Shown one piece after another: positions 1,692 to 9,636 of a DNA stretch of 64,000 bases. The notes under the pieces were generated by a model. That model saw only the letters and a program-made list of their open reading frames with translations, had not been told where the DNA came from and ran no database searches. The DNA comes from a bacterium (GTDB lineage: Bacteria > Patescibacteriota > Patescibacteriia > Patescibacteriales > UBA12465). Where the stretch lies: contig DAONDZ010000005.1 of the NCBI GenBank assembly GCA_035402825.1, forward strand, positions 8,276 to 72,275, given 5' to 3'. Numbering within the stretch: position 1 is the first letter of the stretch; every line of letters begins with the position of its first letter. A program made the position numbers and the translations under genes.

Positions 1692-3236
1692 TTATTCCAA
1701 GTTAAATCCAATATTTTTCAATTGTTTTTTTATTTCTTCATTTAATTTCTTTTCCTCCGCTATCTGCTCTGCAAGTTTAGCAGTTAGCCCTGTAATTTTA
1801 TCAAAAAAAGGAATGCCATCATCAATTTCATCTTGATTGCCAACATAGCGCCCCGGGGTAAGAACAAAGTTATGTTTAGTTATTTCATCTATACCAGCGG
1901 ATTTACAAAAACCTTTTATGTCTTCATATTTTCCATTTTGCTTGCGCCATTCGTGGTAGGTGCCAGCAACACGTGCCATGTCATCTTCGGAAAATTCGCG
2001 GTGCGTCTTGTCTGACATATGGCCGACTTCACTTGCGTCTATAAAAAGAATTTCACCGGTGCGTTTACGGTCACCGTTGCCTGTGCGTTTGCGAGAAATA
2101 AACCAAATACATGCTGGAATTCCAGTATTATAAAAAAGTTGTTTCGGAAGCGCGACAATACAATCCACTAAATCGTTTTCAACGAGCGACTTTCTAATAT
2201 CTCCTTCGTTGTTGGTTTGACTTGATAGTGAACCGTTGGCTAACACACACGCCATAACACCGTGTGGTGATAAATGGTAAATCATGTGCTGGAGCCACGC
2301 ATAATTGGCATTAGATGCGGGTGGTATACCATATTGCCAGCGAGGATCGTTTTGTAAAAGTTGTCCGGACCAATCACTGTCATTAAATGGTGGATTAGCA
2401 AGAACAAAATCAGCCTTAAGATCTTTGTGGGTATCATTTAAAAATGAGCCTTCGGTATTCCATTTTACCTGAGAGCCATCAATACCACGAATAGCAAGAT
2501 TCATTCGGCACAAGCGATAAGTCGTTTGGTTGCTTTCTTGACCATAAATAGAAATGTCCTCAACATTTCCGCGGTGTTCTTTGATAAATTTTTCACTCAT
2601 GATAAACATTCCGCCACTACCACACGCCGGGTCATATACTCTGCCTTTGTACGGCTCAATCATCTCTACCATGATGCGAACAATTGATTTTGGCGTGTAG
2701 AACTGGCCACCCTTCTTACCCTCTGCATTAGCAAATTCACCGAGGAAATATTCATATACCCTCCCAAGTAAATCCTTACTTTTTGCAGCCTCGGTACCAA
2801 GGGCGATATTACCCACAAGATCAATAAGTCCACCAAGTGAGGCTTTGTCCAAATTAGGACGAGCATATACTTTCGGGAGAATACCTTTAAGCGTCGGGTT
2901 TTCTTTTTCTATGGCCTCCATCGCATCATCCAAGTCCTTCCCAATGGATGGTAGTTTTGATCGAGAATGAAGATAAGACCAACGGGCAATTTGTGGCACG
3001 AAAAAAACATTTTCTGCGCGATACTCGTCGGCATCTTCAGGGTTTGCCCCTGCAAAATCATCGCCACCTACTTTTATTTTGTTATATAACTCCTCAAATG
3101 AATCTGAAATGTATTTCAGAAAGATAAGCCCAAGCACAATGTGCTTGTACTCAGCTGCATCCATATTCTTACGTAATTTATCAGCCGCCTTAAAAAGAGT
3201 CTTTTCAAATGATTCTGTTTTATTATCCTTTGCCAT
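1692..3236 (-). CDS. hsdM: Type I restriction-modification N6-adenine DNA methyltransferase subunit HsdM
   Basis: 514 aa, carrying the N6-MTase catalytic motif NPPF (LANPPFNDSDW) and the SAM-binding motif DPACGSGG. Confidence 0.9.
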   Translation of the reverse strand: MAKDNKTESFEKTLFKAADKLRKNMDAAEYKHIVLGLIFLKYISDSFEELYNKIKVGGDDFAGANPEDADEYRAENVFFVPQIARWSYLHSRSKLPSIGKDLDDAMEAIEKENPTLKGILPKVYARPNLDKASLGGLIDLVGNIALGTEAAKSKDLLGRVYEYFLGEFANAEGKKGGQFYTPKSIVRIMVEMIEPYKGRVYDPACGSGGMFIMSEKFIKEHRGNVEDISIYGQESNQTTYRLCRMNLAIRGIDGSQVKWNTEGSFLNDTHKDLKADFVLANPPFNDSDWSGQLLQNDPRWQYGIPPASNANYAWLQHMIYHLSPHGVMACVLANGSLSSQTNNEGDIRKSLVENDLVDCIVALPKQLFYNTGIPACIWFISRKRTGNGDRKRTGEILFIDASEVGHMSDKTHREFSEDDMARVAGTYHEWRKQNGKYEDIKGFCKSAGIDEITKHNFVLTPGRYVGNQDEIDDGIPFFDKITGLTAKLAEQIAEEKKLNEEIKKQLKNIGFNLE

Positions 3237-3237
3237 A

Positions 3238-3411
3238 TTATTTTTTAAGTAATTTTAATATTTCACTTTTTCTAAAACGTCGATCGCCTCGTTTACCAAA
3301 GCGAATACATTCAACCAGGCCATCCTTCTCCCATTGTCTAAGGGTGTTTGGGTGACAATTTAATAGTTCACAAGCCTGACTTAACTTTAATATTTCTTCA
3401 TTATTTTCCAT
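3238..3411 (-). CDS. Small helix-turn-helix DNA-binding protein (MerR/excisionase-family HTH), 57 aa, immediately upstream of hsdM
   Basis: Manually found ORF below the 60-aa cut-off of the track: MENNEEILKLSQACELLNCHPNTLRQWEKDGLVECIRFGKRGDRRFRKSEILKLLKK. The HTH_17-like pattern is (L..A.ELL......T...W...G.....R.G.R.RF). Confidence 0.55.
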   Translation of the reverse strand: MENNEEILKLSQACELLNCHPNTLRQWEKDGLVECIRFGKRGDRRFRKSEILKLLKK

Positions 3412-4417: not shown

Positions 4418-4684
4418 ATGATTACCGACAAAAACAAACTGGAATACATCGACTATCGCGATGAATTTTCTACTTACGATATAGGTTTAGCTGCGGCCTT
4501 GGTTTCTTTTGGATACGAGCTTTGGGCTTTAGAAAAAGGAGAACCAAAGACAAAATTTATTTTTAAGCGTGAAACAGGTATCGAGAATACAGTTAATAGC
4601 TATTTTAACGGCAATCTGCAGGTTGATGCCCGAACAATTTTTGATAACCTAAAAATGCTCAAAAATCGCCTTTACAGTTTATGA
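4418..4684 (+). CDS. Hypothetical small protein, DUF5659-like (phage/plasmid-associated family)
   Basis: 88-aa ORF. The pattern ...ALVSFGYELWALEK...KFIFKRE...DARTIFDNLKMLKNRLY resembles DUF5659 members; the assignment is from memory, not a search. Confidence 0.4.
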   Translation: MITDKNKLEYIDYRDEFSTYDIGLAAALVSFGYELWALEKGEPKTKFIFKRETGIENTVNSYFNGNLQVDARTIFDNLKMLKNRLYSL

Positions 4685-4824: not shown

Positions 4825-5991
4825 ATGAACAAAGAATTCGAATATTTGGGAGCCGAGGAACTAACGGATATTCTAGGACTTACCATAAAAAAAGATAATA
4901 AAAATAAGCTTATTACTTTTCTTTGTGCCTTATCTGCTTATACAGAAGATTCCCAATTTAATTTAATCTTTAATGCTCCATCTTCAACTGGAAAAAGTTT
5001 TATTCCAACAGAAATAGCCAAACTTTTCCCAGCAGAAGATGTTATAGAAATCGCTTACTGCTCCCCAACCGCTTTTTTTCATGAGAACGGAAAATATGAC
5101 AAAGAACGAAACTCAATAATAATGGAACTATCTAATAAAATAATTATTTTTTTAGACCAGCCTCACTTGATGCTTCTTGAAAAACTTAGGCCGCTACTTT
5201 CTCATGATGCCAAAGAAATTAACCTTAAGATTACTGATAAGTCACAAAAGGGTGGTTTAAAAACCAAAAACATCATAATAAAGGGGTATCCTAGTGTTAT
5301 ATTTTGTAGCGCCAACATGAATATAGACGAACAGGAAGGCACTAGATTTATGGTGCTTTCACCAGAAGTGGATCAAGACAAGTTACGAGAATCCATAAGA
5401 GAGAAAGTACTTAAAGATACTGACATTGAAAAATATGCTACCTGGCTCGAACAAGACCCAAGAAGAATAAAATTAAGAGAACGAATACTGGCGATCAAGG
5501 CAGCAAAAATAAAAAATATTATTGTGCCCAACCCAGAAATAATATTAGAAAAATTTTTTGCAAGCAGAATTAAACTAAAACCACGTCACCAAAGAGATGT
5601 TGGGCGCATAATTTCATTAATAAAAGTTTCCGCTCTTATAAACCTGTGGCTCAGGGAAAAAGTTGGACCATCTATTATTTCTAATAATGATGATTTGGAC
5701 TTAGCCTTTTTGATCTGGAACAAAATATCAAAAAGCCAAGAATTAAATATCTCTCCTTACATTTTAGATATATACGAAAAAATAATTCTGCCCCTTTCGT
5801 CTGATAATCATGGATTAACAAAAAAAGAAATATTGGCAGAATACTACAAACGAAATGGGAGTTTTATTCCGGATTATCAATTAAGACAACAAATAATACC
5901 GACCCTAAAGGTGGCCGGATTAATTTCAGAGGACCCAGACCCTAAAGATGGTCGCTCAATTTTAATTAGACCCACAATGTATAGTGAGTGA
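4825..5991 (+). CDS. P-loop NTPase, SF3-helicase / primase C-terminal-like replication protein of a mobile element
   Basis: Walker A NAPSSTGKS, Walker B-like IIIFLDQ and a sensor-1-like VIFCSAN, spaced as in P4-type primase-helicase / D5-like ATPases. Confidence 0.5.
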   Translation: MNKEFEYLGAEELTDILGLTIKKDNKNKLITFLCALSAYTEDSQFNLIFNAPSSTGKSFIPTEIAKLFPAEDVIEIAYCSPTAFFHENGKYDKERNSIIMELSNKIIIFLDQPHLMLLEKLRPLLSHDAKEINLKITDKSQKGGLKTKNIIIKGYPSVIFCSANMNIDEQEGTRFMVLSPEVDQDKLRESIREKVLKDTDIEKYATWLEQDPRRIKLRERILAIKAAKIKNIIVPNPEIILEKFFASRIKLKPRHQRDVGRIISLIKVSALINLWLREKVGPSIISNNDDLDLAFLIWNKISKSQELNISPYILDIYEKIILPLSSDNHGLTKKEILAEYYKRNGSFIPDYQLRQQIIPTLKVAGLISEDPDPKDGRSILIRPTMYSE

Positions 5992-6270: not shown

Positions 6271-6600
6271 CGACAAAGGTGCGACAAATAAATTTAATAG
6301 AAGAAATCAAAACTTAAAAAATCGTGTTATCAGCGAGTAACCAATACAAAAAGAGTTAACAATATAATTTTCTTATTAAATATTAAACTAAATATAGCAA
6401 AACTTAGTACCCTTTTTTCGAGAATATAACCGGACAAAACCGGACAATAAAACGAGACAATGAGAACATTTTAAGAGTTTAGAAAATAGTAAAAAATACC
6501 CACGTTCTTTAAAAGTTTTAAAAACTACAACAATATAACGACAAAATTAAGCCTAAATCAAAGCTTTTTATTAGATCATGGGGCGGCCCTAAAATTGACA
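6241..6600. repeat. Cluster of at least 8 GACAA-core short repeats in an AT-rich, ORF-free region (iteron-like; putative origin or recombinase-binding region)
   Basis: GACAAGG, CGACAAAGG, GCGACAAATA, CCGGACAAAA/CCGGACAATA (tandem 10-mers at 6430-6449), CGAGACAATG, AACGACAAAATT and TTGACAAATT. Confidence 0.35.
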
Positions 6601-6625
6601 AATTAGCTTGATAACTAGTGCTTTC

Positions 6626-6634
6626 TGTGATAAT
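6626..6634 (+). promoter_or_regulatory. Extended -10 promoter (TGtGATAAT) driving the structured RNA element
   Basis: TG at 6626-6627 and GATAAT at 6629-6634. An upstream TTGATA/TTGACA lies at suboptimal spacing. Confidence 0.4.
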
Positions 6635-6640
6635 CTATAA

Positions 6641-6801
6641 GCGACTACCCAATTAAATGTTCACGAAACTAAGGCCCGTTTGACGGTTAGCCCGTCTTTG
6701 TCTCGCACTTGCGGATAAAGATGGGCAGTTAACCTTCCACAAGCGAGACCTTTGGGCCTTCGTGAACAGTGGGTAGTCAGGTTTGACTGCCCTTTTTTGT
6801 T
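6641..6801 (+). ncRNA. Unclassified highly structured RNA / riboswitch-like leader
   Basis: Nested long-range helices:
- GACUACCCA(6643-6651)/UGGGUAGUC(6770-6778)
- GUUCACGAA/UUCGUGAAC
- AAGGCCC/GGGCCUU
These enclose two hairpins (GACGG-UUAGC-CCGUC; GUCUCGC...GCGAGAC). An alternative terminator GGGUAGUC-AGGUUU-GACUGCCC plus U6GUU reuses the 3' strand of the outer helix. Confidence 0.5.
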
Positions 6802-6828
6802 GGGCAGATTATAATTAAAATAAAAATT

Positions 6829-7344
6829 ATGAGCAATGAAAACAAGCTCCTGGACGGAGCTAAAAAATCGTCCATCATGAATTGGGTTAAGAAACACAAG
6901 ATCTTAACCGCCATTATAATTATCTTCGTAATCGGACTGATCGGTAGTGCCATGGGGGAAGATAAAAGCACTAATAACAATATCGTCGCAAATCCTGAAG
7001 CTAATAAACCAGAAGAAAAGCAACCGGTCCAGGAGCCAGAAAAACCCAAGACTTGGACTAGCGTTTACAAAGTAACAGCAAACTCAGACAAACAAACTGA
7101 AAACTTTTCCCTTGATGGCGGACAACAGAAAATAGTATATAAGACTACCGGCAACAGCTCACTCTGCTATGTCTACGTTCTAAAGGAAGGAGCAACGCTA
7201 GACAAGAACGGCGGAATGCCAGTTGTATCAATCGACGGCGAACAAGCCGACGAAACGATGATGAGAAAATCCGATGGAAACTATTACTTGGATATCAAAA
7301 CAGTAAATGGTAGTTGCCAAATAGAAGTTCAGGAACTTAAATAA
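6829..7344 (+). CDS. Small membrane-anchored (N-terminal TM/signal-anchor) extracytoplasmic protein, hypothetical
   Basis: 171 aa with a hydrophobic segment ILTAIIIIFVIGLIGSAMG, then a low-complexity linker and a Cys-containing domain. Confidence 0.5.
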   Translation: MSNENKLLDGAKKSSIMNWVKKHKILTAIIIIFVIGLIGSAMGEDKSTNNNIVANPEANKPEEKQPVQEPEKPKTWTSVYKVTANSDKQTENFSLDGGQQKIVYKTTGNSSLCYVYVLKEGATLDKNGGMPVVSIDGEQADETMMRKSDGNYYLDIKTVNGSCQIEVQELK

Positions 7345-7360
7345 AAATGAATAACCATAA

Positions 7361-7387
7361 AAGACCGCTCCAAGGCGGTCTTTTTAA
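7361..7387 (+). terminator. Rho-independent terminator
   Basis: GACCGC-UCCAAG-GCGGUC followed by UUUUU. Confidence 0.6.
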
Positions 7388-7396
7388 AAACATAAT

Positions 7397-9040
7397 ATGA
7401 CAAATCAAAACAATAATATTAAATACTTTCTTTACGCAAGAAAGTCGTCCGAAAGTGAAGATAAGCAAGTGGCTTCTATTGATGCTCAAATTGATGAGCT
7501 CAAAAAAATATCTAAAGAAAATAATTTAGAGGTAGTTGAAATCCTATCAGAATCACAATCAGCCAAGAAGCCGGGACGCCCCGTCTTTAACTCAATGTTA
7601 GAAAGAATTTATAAAGGCGAAGCAACTGGTGTTTTATGCTGGAAAATTAATCGTTTAGCAAGAAACCCAATCGACGGCGGGAAAGTATCCTGGATGCTTC
7701 AGGAAGGCACTATTAAACACATACAAACCTTTGGTCGAAGTTATTACCCTAGTGATAATGTTTTAATGATGGCCGTTGAATTAGGAATGGCCAATCAATT
7801 TATTAAGGACCTAAGTGTCGACACAAAAAGAGGTTTAAGGGCTAAGGCTGAGCGTGGCTGGTATCCGACATTCACATCTTTAGGCTACAAACACAATCCA
7901 TTAAAGATAAAAGGAGAAAAAGAAATAGTTGATGATCCGGAAAAGTTTCATTTACTGAGAAAAATGTTTGACCTAATGCTAACTGGCCATTATCCAGTAA
8001 AAAAGATTCTTGATATTGCAACTAACGAATGGGGCTTGAGAAATAAAAAAAATAAAAAGGTTGCTATAAGCACCTTTTACAGAATTCTATCAGACCCCTT
8101 CTATTATGGTAACTTTGAATATCCTCAAGGCAGCGGAAATTGGTATAAAGGAAAACATAAACCAATGATTACTATAAATGAATTTGAGCGCATTCAAAAA
8201 CTATTAGGCAAAGAAACAAGTGCGCGTCCTCATAACAAAGAATTTGCTTTTACAGGATTAATGCGGTGTGGCGAATGCGGAGCTATTATAACTGCCGAAG
8301 CTAAAGTTAAAAGTTATAAGAATGGAAATATTCATAATTATACTTACTACCACTGCACAAAAAGAAAAAATCCGAATTGTTCTCAGAAATGCATTCGAGT
8401 AGAAACCTTAGAGAAACAAATAAGCGAAGAAATAAAACAAATATTTTTACCTAAAGAATTCTGTAGTTGGGCGCTAGAAGTTTTAAGCCGTGAAACCCGC
8501 GAAAACGGTCAAGATCGAGCCCAGCTCATATCTAAGCATAAAAAGGAATACGACGCTGTAGTGACCAAAATAAACGGTATAATAGACATGAGATCAGCTG
8601 GAGAGCTAACTGCCGAAGAATTTAATGAGCGTAAAATAGAGCTGAGCCGAGAAAAAGAGAAATTACAAGAACTTTTAAAGGATGTAGAAGAAAATGAAAA
8701 CAACTACACCGAAAAGGCGAACAGCCTTTTCCTTTTCGCAGAAAAGATTTGTGAAAAATTTATAAATGGAGATTTAAAGGACAAAGGAATAATACTTTCC
8801 TGCTTAGGTTCGAACCTCACATTAATCAACGGAAAATTGGAGATTTCATTGCAAAAACCACTAATACACATCAAAAATTTATCGCAAAATTTACACGCGA
8901 AAAATGAAGCGTTAGAACCAATGAAAAATGGCGAATATAAAAGAAAAACAGGCTCTTTCGAGTCTGCTTTTCCGATGTTGCTCCCGGGGTGGGATTCGAA
9001 CCCACGACCAATTGATTACACTTATCCACTAGTTTCCTAA
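7397..9040 (+). CDS. Large serine recombinase (integrase/transposase-type); C-terminal about 20 codons overlap tRNA exon 2 and the intron
   Basis: Resolvase-domain catalytic motif YARKSS near the N-terminus, a recombinase domain, a Cys-rich zinc ribbon (CGECG...C..C) and a coiled-coil C-terminus. The ORF reads through 8981-9040. Confidence 0.85.
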   Translation: MTNQNNNIKYFLYARKSSESEDKQVASIDAQIDELKKISKENNLEVVEILSESQSAKKPGRPVFNSMLERIYKGEATGVLCWKINRLARNPIDGGKVSWMLQEGTIKHIQTFGRSYYPSDNVLMMAVELGMANQFIKDLSVDTKRGLRAKAERGWYPTFTSLGYKHNPLKIKGEKEIVDDPEKFHLLRKMFDLMLTGHYPVKKILDIATNEWGLRNKKNKKVAISTFYRILSDPFYYGNFEYPQGSGNWYKGKHKPMITINEFERIQKLLGKETSARPHNKEFAFTGLMRCGECGAIITAEAKVKSYKNGNIHNYTYYHCTKRKNPNCSQKCIRVETLEKQISEEIKQIFLPKEFCSWALEVLSRETRENGQDRAQLISKHKKEYDAVVTKINGIIDMRSAGELTAEEFNERKIELSREKEKLQELLKDVEENENNYTEKANSLFLFAEKICEKFINGDLKDKGIILSCLGSNLTLINGKLEISLQKPLIHIKNLSQNLHAKNEALEPMKNGEYKRKTGSFESAFPMLLPGWDSNPRPIDYTYPLVS

Positions 9041-9575
9041 TGGGGTGGACTATATCATCGCCCATACAACATGGGCGCGAGGCGCTTCGAGCTATAACTT
9101 ATAGCCCTACTCCCTTTCGGGATAGTCTCTGAACCTTCCACACATAATCCTATGCGGGCTTGGCTGCTGATTACCATAATCTTTCGATCTTAGGCTTCCA
9201 GCAATTCACCTCGTTCTTCGATCTCAATTACTTGAGAAAGCTGCGTAATGCCTTCATGTACTTCGCGATGACAATTGGCACATAGGAGAACACATTTCTT
9301 TAGTTCTTCTGCTACGGACTTCCAGCTTCTGGTGTATCCTTTAGCAGAAATACCGAAATCTTTCTCCCCCGATTCAAGATGGTGAAACTCTAAAGCTTTT
9401 AGGCATCTATTGTAACCACAAATGATGCACTTTCCGCCTTTGTGTTCAACCGCCATCTGACGAATCTTTTTGCGTCTTTTGTCAACGGCCGCCTTCATAT
9501 ATTCGGCTCTATCGGCATATTTTCTCTTTTCTTTTCGCATATAAAATAGTTATAGCAAAATAAGAGAGTGCGTTC
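9019..9575 (-). mobile_element. Group I self-splicing intron (about 557 nt) with an embedded HNH homing-endonuclease ORF
   Basis: On the minus-strand RNA:
- Q-like AAUCAGCAGCC (about 9156-9166)
- R-like UUCAGAGACUAUC (9121-9133)
- S-like GAUAUAGUCC (about 9046-9056)
- P7 pairing GACUAU/AUAGUC
- terminal G before exon 2, and U before the 5' splice site. Confidence 0.8.
9190..9540 (-). CDS. HNH-family homing endonuclease encoded inside the group I intron
   Basis: 116 aa with a zinc-finger-like CIICGYNRC...HH and a HNH-like CANCHREVH motif. Confidence 0.65.
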   Translation of the reverse strand: MRKEKRKYADRAEYMKAAVDKRRKKIRQMAVEHKGGKCIICGYNRCLKALEFHHLESGEKDFGISAKGYTRSWKSVAEELKKCVLLCANCHREVHEGITQLSQVIEIEERGELLEA

Positions 9576-9636
9576 ACAGTCAACTGCGCTACCGCTGCGC
9601 TACCCGGGAATATATTAAATTTTCAAAACATAAGCT

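Follow-up and report, generated by a model that had tools for sequence, protein, structure and literature searches.

A conserved structured leader RNA with a predicted terminator precedes membrane-protein genes in a family of small integrating elements

The 64,000-nucleotide (nt) stretch of bacterial contig DAONDZ010000005.1 analysed here (positions 8,276 to 72,275, hereafter the window) carries a small integrating mobile element, within which a promoter-driven, highly structured RNA occupies positions 6643-6801 of the plus strand. The RNA ends in a predicted intrinsic terminator whose 5' arm is also the 3' strand of its outermost helix, and the apical loop of its longest hairpin is complementary to the rest of that terminator. 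It is tentatively read as a cis-acting leader of a family of such elements, equipped with a conditional intrinsic terminator. We give this reading somewhat less than an even chance; the RNA would most likely act as an on/off valve for the membrane-protein genes that follow it. Almost nothing is known of gene regulation in candidate-phyla-radiation bacteria and their mobile elements, and in this compact RNA of about 157 nt, covariation is strong, promoter and terminator are both defined, and the three-way competition of pairings lends itself to testing.

Fold and promoter of the RNA

The 161-nt stretch 6641-6801 has a predicted minimum free energy (MFE) of -69.8 kcal/mol, compared with -42.6 +/- 4.1 kcal/mol for dinucleotide shuffles (z = -6.7), and 0 of 200 shuffles folded as well. 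An earlier note on this DNA, made from its letters, had described a promoter-driven and highly structured plus-strand RNA, and both this fold and a promoter kept in 20 of 20 homologs agree with it. The opposite strand also folds well (z = -7.4), and folding energy alone therefore does not identify the strand. A repeat finder returned as its two longest inverted repeats, both perfect, 6658-6667/6759-6768 and 6643-6651/6770-6778. Every helix listed in the earlier note is present where it had been placed. Its seven-base-pair (bp) helix AAGGCCC/GGGCCUU likewise exists, but it overlaps P2 (GUUCACGAA/UUCGUGAAC) by two U residues (6759-6760), so that both cannot be full length. The RNA and its helices are as follows.

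6643-6801, plus strand: structured RNA from its probable start to the end of the U-tract, recognised by fold significance and scoring 167 bits with covariance model R1
6643-6651 with 6770-6778, plus strand: P1, GACUACCCA with UGGGUAGUC; its 5' strand is segment A
6659-6667 with 6759-6767, plus strand: P2, GUUCACGAA with UUCGUGAAC
6673-6677 with 6754-6758, plus strand: P2a, GGCCC with GGGCC
6682-6696, plus strand: P3 hairpin, GACGG-UUAGC-CCGUC
6700-6749, plus strand: P4, a long hairpin with GUCUCGC (6700-6706) paired to GCGAGAC (6743-6749)
6709-6715 with 6736-6742, plus strand: extension of P4, UUGCGGA with UCCACAA, closing a 20-nt loop at 6716-6735

In the MFE fold computed by RNAfold, the interior is occupied by another hairpin ("Alt"), CCCGUCUUUGUC with GAUAAAGAUGGG, instead of P3 and P4, and nested folds at growing lengths show P3 first, then the Alt hairpin, and then closure of P2a, P2, and P1. 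The Alt hairpin is predicted in every homolog, and stands well above shuffled controls in the window-like subgroup only. It was rejected as a universal feature, being at chance level in L002, L008, L019, and L028.

Upstream of the RNA lies a promoter with two recognisable elements.

6608-6613, plus strand: -35 hexamer TTGATA; a TTGAYW- or TTTACW-like hexamer is found in 18 of 20 homologs at a fixed spacing of 17 nt
6628-6636, plus strand: extended -10, TG-A-TAATCT; the family consensus is TGnTAAATT, and the TG is invariant in 20 of 20

In the window, the TG falls at 6628-6629 and the hexamer TAATCT (TAAATT in others) at 6631-6636, with a 17-nt spacer from the -35 hexamer. The earlier note had read the -10 element as TGtGATAAT; an extended -10 is indeed present, but the family alignment sets it two bases to the right and places the start at about G6643. 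In all 20 sequences, the seventh base after the -10 hexamer is the G of GACUAC, and transcription would thereby begin at about G6643, the first base of P1. At the other end, sequence conservation ceases directly after the U-tract UUUUUUGUU, such that it stops at both ends of the RNA.

Homologs and covariation

Homologs of the 171-aa membrane protein encoded immediately downstream were traced to their contigs and the DNA upstream of them was inspected; in most contigs carrying such a homolog, the same RNA lies directly 5' of the gene. Exact-pattern scans made from the two most conserved blocks to find further members added one viral contig, ten metagenome matches, and seven genome matches, of which three were false positives in coding sequence. 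The matches L024, L031, and L033 to the combined pattern were rejected as false positives, consisting of GC-rich sequence without the other conserved segments of the RNA. In IMG/VR, the loop pattern gave one true match (L019) and seven chance matches, the first terminator pattern gave none, and with a looser pattern none of 79 new loci among the matches listed fitted the covariance model. A blastn search with 6600-6830 against the annotated phages and plasmids of INPHARED and PLSDB returned no match. In all, 20 distinct RNA sequences were collected from metagenomes or metagenome-assembled genomes (MAGs), comprising 19 in the alignment and L040/L041, found later. A single copy per locus, and likewise one in the window, was found with the covariance model derived from the alignment.

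The RNA does not accompany the protein everywhere: it is missing at the loci of P0141 and P0140 (L006 2790-2970 and L042 1-183), which are the two most remote among the homologs of the 171-aa protein. L006 has an unrelated leader with three hairpins and an intrinsic terminator about 45 nt 5' of the gene (z = -3.8), which may be analogous and non-homologous.

With the conserved P4 loop held single-stranded, one architecture is obtained in 19 of 19 sequences: P1 leads through an internal loop into P2 and then P2a, beyond which P3 and a P4 of 13-14 bp, the latter with a loop of 19-20 nt, branch from a three-way junction. Within this architecture, two subtypes can be told apart.

Type 1 (window-like): P2 GUUCACGA; P2a GGCCC; P3 GACGG hairpin; P4 base GUCUCGC
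Type 2 (L013, L014, L028, L030, L035, L036): P2 GUUAGC; P2a GCACGAA; P3 AGAC/GUCU hairpin; P4 base UACCGUUUU

The helices are retained across these changes of sequence. In type 2, P2 pairs GUUAGC with GCUAAC and P4 pairs UACCGUUUU with AAAACGGUA; P2a takes the alternative forms GCACGAA/UUCGUGC, ACCCUA/UAGGGU, and AUCCG/CGGAU among the relatives; and P4 of L019 consists of 13 perfect A-U-rich pairs. In the model-guided alignment, 87% of cells are paired, compared with 78% in shuffles, and sliding the partners by 1-3 columns lowers pairing to 32-48%. A check of homologs and covariation, as the earlier note had proposed, thus yielded 20 homologs and changes on both sides in 21 of 41 pairs, values reached by 0 of 500 shuffles. 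These two-sided changes affect all six basal pairs of P4, five of nine in P2, and three pairs in P3. The low pairing tabulated for P2a reflects misalignment of the type 2 sequences at this helix, whose own P2a pairs perfectly.

The compensatory changes argue for P2, P2a, P3, and P4, and P3 and P4, despite the MFE preference, are therefore the evolutionarily conserved interior of the RNA. Furthermore, the helices contain 39 G.U pairs as against 15 A.C mismatches, which favours the plus strand. The two minus-strand open reading frames (ORFs) that overlap the RNA (6661..6897 and 6777..7049), already suspected of being spurious, look so in the homologs as well, where the stop-free stretch ranges from 33 to 101 codons and is not conserved. 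The junction linkers J2a/3, J3/4, and J4/2a and the internal loop between P1 and P2 are conserved neither in length nor in sequence, and type 2 almost lacks them.

Predicted competition of the terminator with the outer helix and the P4 loop

The 3' end of the RNA contains a GC-rich hairpin with an adjoining U-tract on the transcribed strand, and is thus a predicted intrinsic terminator; the pattern scan marked 6771-6792 followed by TTTTTTGTT. The segments that enter into alternative pairings are the following.

6771-6779 with 6784-6792, plus strand: intrinsic terminator from the pattern scan, nine pairs and a 4-nt loop, then UUUUUUGUU at 6793-6801
6643-6651, plus strand: segment A, GACUAC(C/U)(C/U)A, nearly invariant
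P4 loop, plus strand: segment B, AUG(G/A)GCAGUU(A/G)ACC, nearly invariant
6771-6780, plus strand: segment A', GGGUAGUCAG, invariant in the 19 aligned homologs and L040; the region 6770-6779 serves as both P1 3' strand and terminator 5' arm
6785-6798, plus strand: segment B', GACUG(C/U)(C/U)C and six U, nearly invariant
6784-6801, plus strand: terminator 3' arm UGACUGCCC and U-tract UUUUUUGUU, able to pair with A' or with the P4 loop
6714-6734, plus strand: segment B-ext, the top of P4 and its loop, GAUAAAGAUGGGCAGUUAACC, complementary to 6780-6801

Segment A' (6770-6779) can pair either with 6643-6651, giving P1, or with 6784-6792, giving the terminator. The two pairings are mutually exclusive, just as had been proposed from the sequence of the window, and an arrangement of this kind is that of a riboswitch expression platform. 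Both are maintained in the 19 homologs: P1 (A/A') is paired in 98.8% of cells, with six pairs that never vary and two in which C changes to U to give U.G, and the terminator (A'/B') is paired in 99.4% of cells. The two states also differ little in predicted energy. For the window, calculations in which the loop stayed free gave -60.7 kcal/mol for the P1 state and -59.6 kcal/mol for the terminator state, and across the 19 sequences the difference between the two ranges from -5.2 to +2.2 kcal/mol.

The strongest additional feature, missed by the earlier note, is the complementarity of the P4 apical loop, over approximately 20 nt, to the terminator 3' arm and U-tract. B and B' are paired in every sequence, with one compensatory change from G-C to A-U in L002 (type 1) and in L013/L014 (type 2), and RNAalifold followed by a direct count extends this pairing to 20 pairs, between 6714-6734 and 6780-6801. 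This loop-to-tail pairing is kept in 98.4% of cells, with seven positions that vary between A and G only, opposite U, and the predicted duplex amounts to -22 to -29 kcal/mol (z -4.8 to -7.3) in 19 of 19 sequences. A and B are complementary at eight of nine positions, interrupted by an invariant A.C, with a z of about -2. At the one position where the four segments differ, A/A' forms A-U, B/B' forms C-G, A'/B' forms U.G, and A/B leaves the A.C mismatch; P1 together with the loop-to-tail pairing is therefore the fully Watson-Crick state. Invariant columns fall within A, A', B, B', and the upper part of P4, and the alternative pairings can account for all of their invariant bases. Near-invariance is also what segments with several partners should show.

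A further pairing is available in read-through RNA only. The sequence GGGCAG at 6802-6807 (plus strand), directly 3' of the U-tract, can pair with CUGCCC at 6787-6792, and the resulting hairpin across the U-tract is predicted in the read-through fold at about -8.7 kcal/mol. By eye, a GGGC(A/U)-like motif lies 0-6 nt from the U-tract in approximately 13 of 19 homologs.

Probable dependence of the downstream genes on read-through

Wherever an ORF was found within 200 nt, a gene on the same strand begins 29-47 nt 3' of the terminator, by the measure of distance used for this survey; this count excludes L026 and the truncated L037. In L026, where no ORF was found within 200 nt, the TTGACT motif and the first ATG are about 70 nt apart. 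In the window, the gene at 6829-7344 (plus strand) has its ATG 27 nt past the U-tract and encodes 171 aa. At least five unrelated families are represented among the downstream genes, each encoding membrane or secreted proteins with a transmembrane (TM) helix or a signal peptide.

171-aa membrane protein: most loci
90-aa membrane protein: L019
359-aa secreted protein: L025 and L027
Zinc-ribbon and TM protein: L029, L030, and, by its first residues, L037
Another TM protein: L035

The genes 5' of the RNA differ from locus to locus as well, including oppositely oriented restriction-modification, AIPR, DndB, MazG, and MutH genes, or else element genes oriented like the RNA. The travelling unit is thus the promoter and RNA with a membrane-protein gene.

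For the 171-aa protein, Pfam and PHROGs gave nothing significant and no fold match was found in the PDB. Two AlphaFold models, whose predicted local distance difference test (pLDDT) score is only about 61, suggest one TM helix and a beta-rich C-terminal domain.

The promoter 5' of the RNA is the only evident promoter for these genes. A second one, starting from the TTGACT within the terminator, was considered and rejected, as the homologs have no conserved -10 at a spacing of 16-19 nt from this motif. With no conserved -10 after the terminator, expression of the downstream genes would therefore depend on read-through. No Shine-Dalgarno (SD) sequence was found in the downstream genes of the homologs, and sequestration of such a sequence by the ACCUCC of the loop was rejected for this reason.

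Proposed mechanism

In the mechanism proposed here, regulated read-through, the sense in which the switch works, and the part played by the loop-to-tail pairing are inferred. Transcription would begin at about G6643 from the conserved extended -10 promoter, and the nascent RNA would fold P2/P2a and the three-way junction with P3 and the long P4. On emerging, A' (6770-6779) could close P1 with A (6643-6651). Should B' (6784-6792) then pair with A', the terminator would form, the RNA of about 157 nt would end at the U-tract, and the gene would be off. Alternatively, A' would be held in P1 and B' captured by the P4 loop (B, 6723-6734), in which case a loop-to-tail pseudoknot would form in place of the terminator and transcription would read through into the membrane-protein gene.

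As P1 and the terminator are near-isoenergetic, a small input could tip the outcome. A macromolecular or kinetic input is somewhat more likely than a metabolite, because the conserved bases make up the competing helices and not a junction pocket. Candidates would be an RNA, a protein, or folding of P4 and the pseudoknot state that depends on Mg2+ or temperature.

Several points weigh against this favoured mechanism. Firstly, P1, the terminator, and the loop-to-tail pairing are almost invariant, and what speaks for them is conservation and complementarity, not covariation. The covariation statistics of these pairings are weak because the sequences barely change: the loop-to-tail value is matched by 29 of 500 shuffles, and the terminator has none. 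Secondly, energy models of nested structure favour the other interior hairpin. Thirdly, a 20-nt loop cannot make all 20 pairs without opening the top of P4, and the geometry of the pseudoknot is uncertain. Fourthly, the polymerase still encloses the U-tract when termination is decided, so that pairing of the U-tract with the purine tract of the loop cannot affect that outcome; this indicates that the finished RNA, whether terminated or read-through, also matters. Finally, the start, the 3' end, and the regulated read-through are predictions from the sequence.

Leaders with a mutually exclusive antiterminator and terminator are of a well-known kind. The present RNA family, by comparison, is absent from Rfam, and a loop that mirrors its own terminator arm and U-tract appears to match no described system. 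It might accordingly represent a new, self-referential RNA switch, in which a hairpin loop reads the terminator of its own element in cis or, by way of previously accumulated RNA, in trans, or else a new class of pseudoknot riboswitch controlling cell-surface proteins, although either is a rather long shot. The elements in question probably reside in ultra-small bacteria, the Patescibacteria. A self-referential switch, if real, would give copy-number- or state-dependent (immunity-like) control of surface proteins without a protein regulator, and the RNA could serve as a modular transcription regulator.

Alternative explanations and known systems

A somewhat unlikely alternative is that the functional product is the terminated species of about 157 nt, namely a stable small RNA of the element. 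After release, its 5' end would be locked in P1 and its 3' U-tail paired to the purine tract of the P4 loop, and it would act by its shape through binding a protein, or in trans on transcripts from its own locus, either nascent or read-through. Its own promoter, the strong and invariant terminator, and conservation that stops exactly at the U-tract are in keeping with such a product, as is the complementarity between loop and U-tract (eight R:U pairs), which makes sense in the finished RNA only. The central loop, complementary to a downstream segment (strongly) and to a 5' segment (8/9, with one A.C), also mimics the seqA-CI-seqC layout (PMC4825925). However, the fully folded state leaves almost no conserved base single-stranded as a seed, the sharing of A' between P1 and the terminator would hinder dedicated 3'-end formation, and the downstream genes are left without a conserved promoter of their own. 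Furthermore, A and B pair only weakly (z about -2) and never without an A.C mismatch, and a search for trans targets of the RNA in the 64-kb window found none beyond chance.

The systems compared in this regard are the phage P4 CI RNA with seqA/seqC, P1 c4 with a1b1/a2b2, and IsrK of Gifsy-1 (PMC4825925). Like these, the present RNA is a promoter-proximal untranslated RNA of a temperate element, in which a central structured segment is strongly complementary to a downstream sequence of the same transcript and might also pair with an upstream one, and a leader terminator, here a predicted one, would yield a short RNA and a read-through mRNA (PMC4825925). Unlike them, it has no sequence or Rfam similarity to the group, its upstream A/B complementarity is weak and contains the invariant A.C, and it belongs to a serine-recombinase element of an uncultured host, probably one of the Patescibacteria. 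If control should be exerted by RNA only, the logic of phage P4 and pT181 would be extended to a new phylum and a new type of element.

An ON-type riboswitch, in which a small molecule or ion (e.g. a second messenger) stabilises P1 and the pseudoknot and thereby blocks the terminator, is judged unlikely. Heterogeneous genes for surface and membrane proteins are also typical of those downstream of second-messenger riboswitches, which counts in its favour here, together with the position of the RNA as a 5' leader behind a conserved promoter, its complex conserved fold with covariation, the highly conserved 20-nt loop, and the strand common to P1 and the terminator, whose near-isoenergetic states are typical of expression platforms. 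In transcription-terminating ON riboswitches such as the pbuE/ydhL adenine riboswitch, the 3' strand of P1 likewise doubles as the 5' strand of the terminator and the two folds are close in energy, and the leader described here shares both properties. Unlike pbuE/ydhL, no conserved junction or pocket nucleotides were found in it: the junction linkers and the P1-P2 internal loop vary where a ligand core would be conserved, and all invariant blocks can be explained by alternative base pairing. It differs further in its P1, which at 9 bp is long, does not vary, and takes in the first base of the transcript; in the second conserved pairing, of the loop with the terminator 3' arm and U-tract, which has no counterpart there; and in the mobile-element membrane-protein genes that lie downstream.

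Nor does the RNA resemble a known aptamer. A cmscan of the whole window against Rfam 15 at gathering thresholds reported a group I intron elsewhere and nothing on the RNA, a scan of 6500-6900 at E <= 10 gave three noise matches only, and a search of five homologous loci at E <= 1 again left the RNA blank, in agreement with the earlier note, which could not match the core to a known aptamer class. The limitation of the RNA to one family of mobile elements also speaks against a riboswitch. That note had offered a riboswitch or an attenuator; the exclusive states and the conserved, covarying fold support this in part, but an aptamer with a conserved junction is not supported. A classical metabolite aptamer is accordingly rated lower than before, because the junction and internal loops are not conserved, although a pocket inside the loop-to-tail pseudoknot is conceivable.

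The ligand site could then be the pseudoknot of the P4 loop and the 3' tail, as in aptamers of the SAM-II, preQ1, and fluoride type. H-type pseudoknot riboswitches (SAM-II, preQ1-I/II, fluoride) switch a gene off when a loop pairs with the 3' tail in which the ribosome-binding site lies. The present RNA likewise has a hairpin loop that can pair with a 3' tail bearing an expression signal, but the tail is the terminator 3' arm, its pairing would turn the gene on, and both the 20-nt loop and the complementarity of about 20 nt are far longer than in those aptamers. If this is a riboswitch, it would hint at a signal governing surface proteins in these largely uncultured organisms.

Far less probable is an attenuator of the pT181/pIP501 type, in which P1 would be the default read-through "preemptor" and an antisense RNA would bind the 5' part of the leader, free A', and induce the terminator. 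In pT181, the terminator is pre-empted as long as its 5' arm is paired with a 5' segment, and an antisense RNA switches this default ON fold to the terminator (PMC3753616). The same logic can be read in the present leader, in that its 5' segment would pre-empt the terminator by pairing with its 5' arm, the default fold would permit transcription, a freed 5' arm would make the terminator, and the setting is again a mobile replicon (PMC3753616); a replication module and iteron-like repeats lie nearby, and the minus strand folds well (z = -7.4). However, no countertranscript promoter was found: by eye, the homologs show no conserved minus-strand promoter-like motif within the conserved blocks or in the flanks just 3' of the leader, flanks that are themselves not conserved, and a promoter scan gave one promoter-like minus-strand site, at 6561-6532 and hence upstream of the RNA, with a match count no greater than the shuffle expectation. 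The balance of G.U over A.C likewise favours the plus strand, and the regulated gene is not rep or another replication initiator but one of at least five families of TM or secreted proteins. Unlike the pT181 and pIP501 leaders, moreover, this RNA is much larger and has a three-way junction, and the complementarity of loop and terminator is absent from those systems.

The proposal that the region acts at the DNA level, with the 8-mers GACTRCCC/GGGYAGTC as operators or accessory recombination sites, or as a single-stranded origin or cruciform, is scarcely credible in spite of five copies of the 8-mer or its complement within 165 bp, the 22-bp imperfect palindrome formed by A' and B', and the serine recombinase and excisionase-like protein encoded by the element: P2, P2a, P3, and P4 keep their pairing through compensatory changes while their sequence changes completely, as a double-stranded DNA site would not, the G.U pairs are strand-specific (39 as against 15 A.C), the promoter and U-tract are conserved in matching orientation, the element ends elsewhere, at a tRNA-His gene, and its replication protein is of the primase-helicase and not the rolling-circle type. 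The earlier suggestion of a recombination site acting only as DNA is therefore unlikely to hold. A leader peptide was also rejected, as the only AUG (6657) opens an eight-codon ORF that is absent from the homologs.

The element and its neighbouring genes

Genes in the window were identified with Pfam, PHROGs, and homolog searches, and those of the element surrounding the RNA are listed below, together with a tRNA-His(GUG) gene at its right-hand side.

3238-3411, minus strand: MerR/excisionase-like helix-turn-helix (HTH) protein
4418-4684, plus strand: DUF5659 protein
4825-5991, plus strand: 388-aa P-loop protein, whose homologs are often fused to Toprim primase domains
6829-7344, plus strand: 171-aa membrane protein
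7397-9040, plus strand: large serine recombinase
~8979-9022, minus strand: tRNA-His 3' exon
9026-9311, minus strand: group I intron in tRNA-His (Rfam match, 84 bits)
9190-9540, minus strand: HNH endonuclease ORF inside the group I intron
~9570-9606, minus strand: tRNA-His 5' exon

The RNA stands out in composition, forming a bump of 45% G+C within a spacer of 24-31% G+C. Over 1500 homologs exist for the 388-aa P-loop protein encoded upstream; many are longer and have Toprim fusions (PF13155, PF13362) or PF27228, and some are named from MAGs of Ca. Staskawiczbacteria and Planctomycetota. The protein probably represents the helicase portion of a replication protein of the primase-helicase type. 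Defence-type cargo also lies near the RNA cassette in the window, namely a type I restriction-modification HsdM (1692-3236) and a 404-aa ORF (475-1689), and the left flanks of L002, L005, L008, and L010 contain genes for AIPR, HpaII/NgoBV/Bsp6I restriction enzymes with methylases, DndB, and MazG-like and MutH proteins.

The tRNA-His(GUG) gene (minus strand, 8979-9600) is interrupted in its anticodon loop by the group I intron, and ARAGORN reported no tRNA in the window. The ORF of the serine recombinase (7397-9040) reads into the 3' end of this gene (…GWDSNPRP…), and because of this overlap the tRNA-His gene is presumably the attachment site of the element. The P4 loop of L008/L030-type variants has a 9-nt identity, GCAGUUGAC, to the tRNA-His anticodon arm (GCAGUUGAC, 9588-9596), and the loop of the window itself has GCAGUUAAC. 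Sensing of the tRNA was rejected, since the identity is probably due to chance, with approximately 0.04-0.15 such matches expected.

Iteron-like direct repeats, ATAACCGGACAAA / AAAACCGGACAAT / AAAACGAGACAAT, lie 5' of the RNA promoter at 6426-6461. In related elements, repeats such as GACAAATCCAACA occur in several copies in a gap of 280-450 nt 3' of the membrane-protein gene, at the following positions.

L002: 3511-3791
L005: 3511-3798
L008: 3493-3775
L010: 3514-3863
L013: 3266-3717

These iteron-like repeats could be a replication origin. Lastly, a perfect 10-bp hairpin, AAAAGACCGCCTTGGAGCGGTCTTTT, with A and T runs on either side, lies at 7359-7384 between the genes for the membrane protein and the serine recombinase, and looks like a bidirectional terminator.

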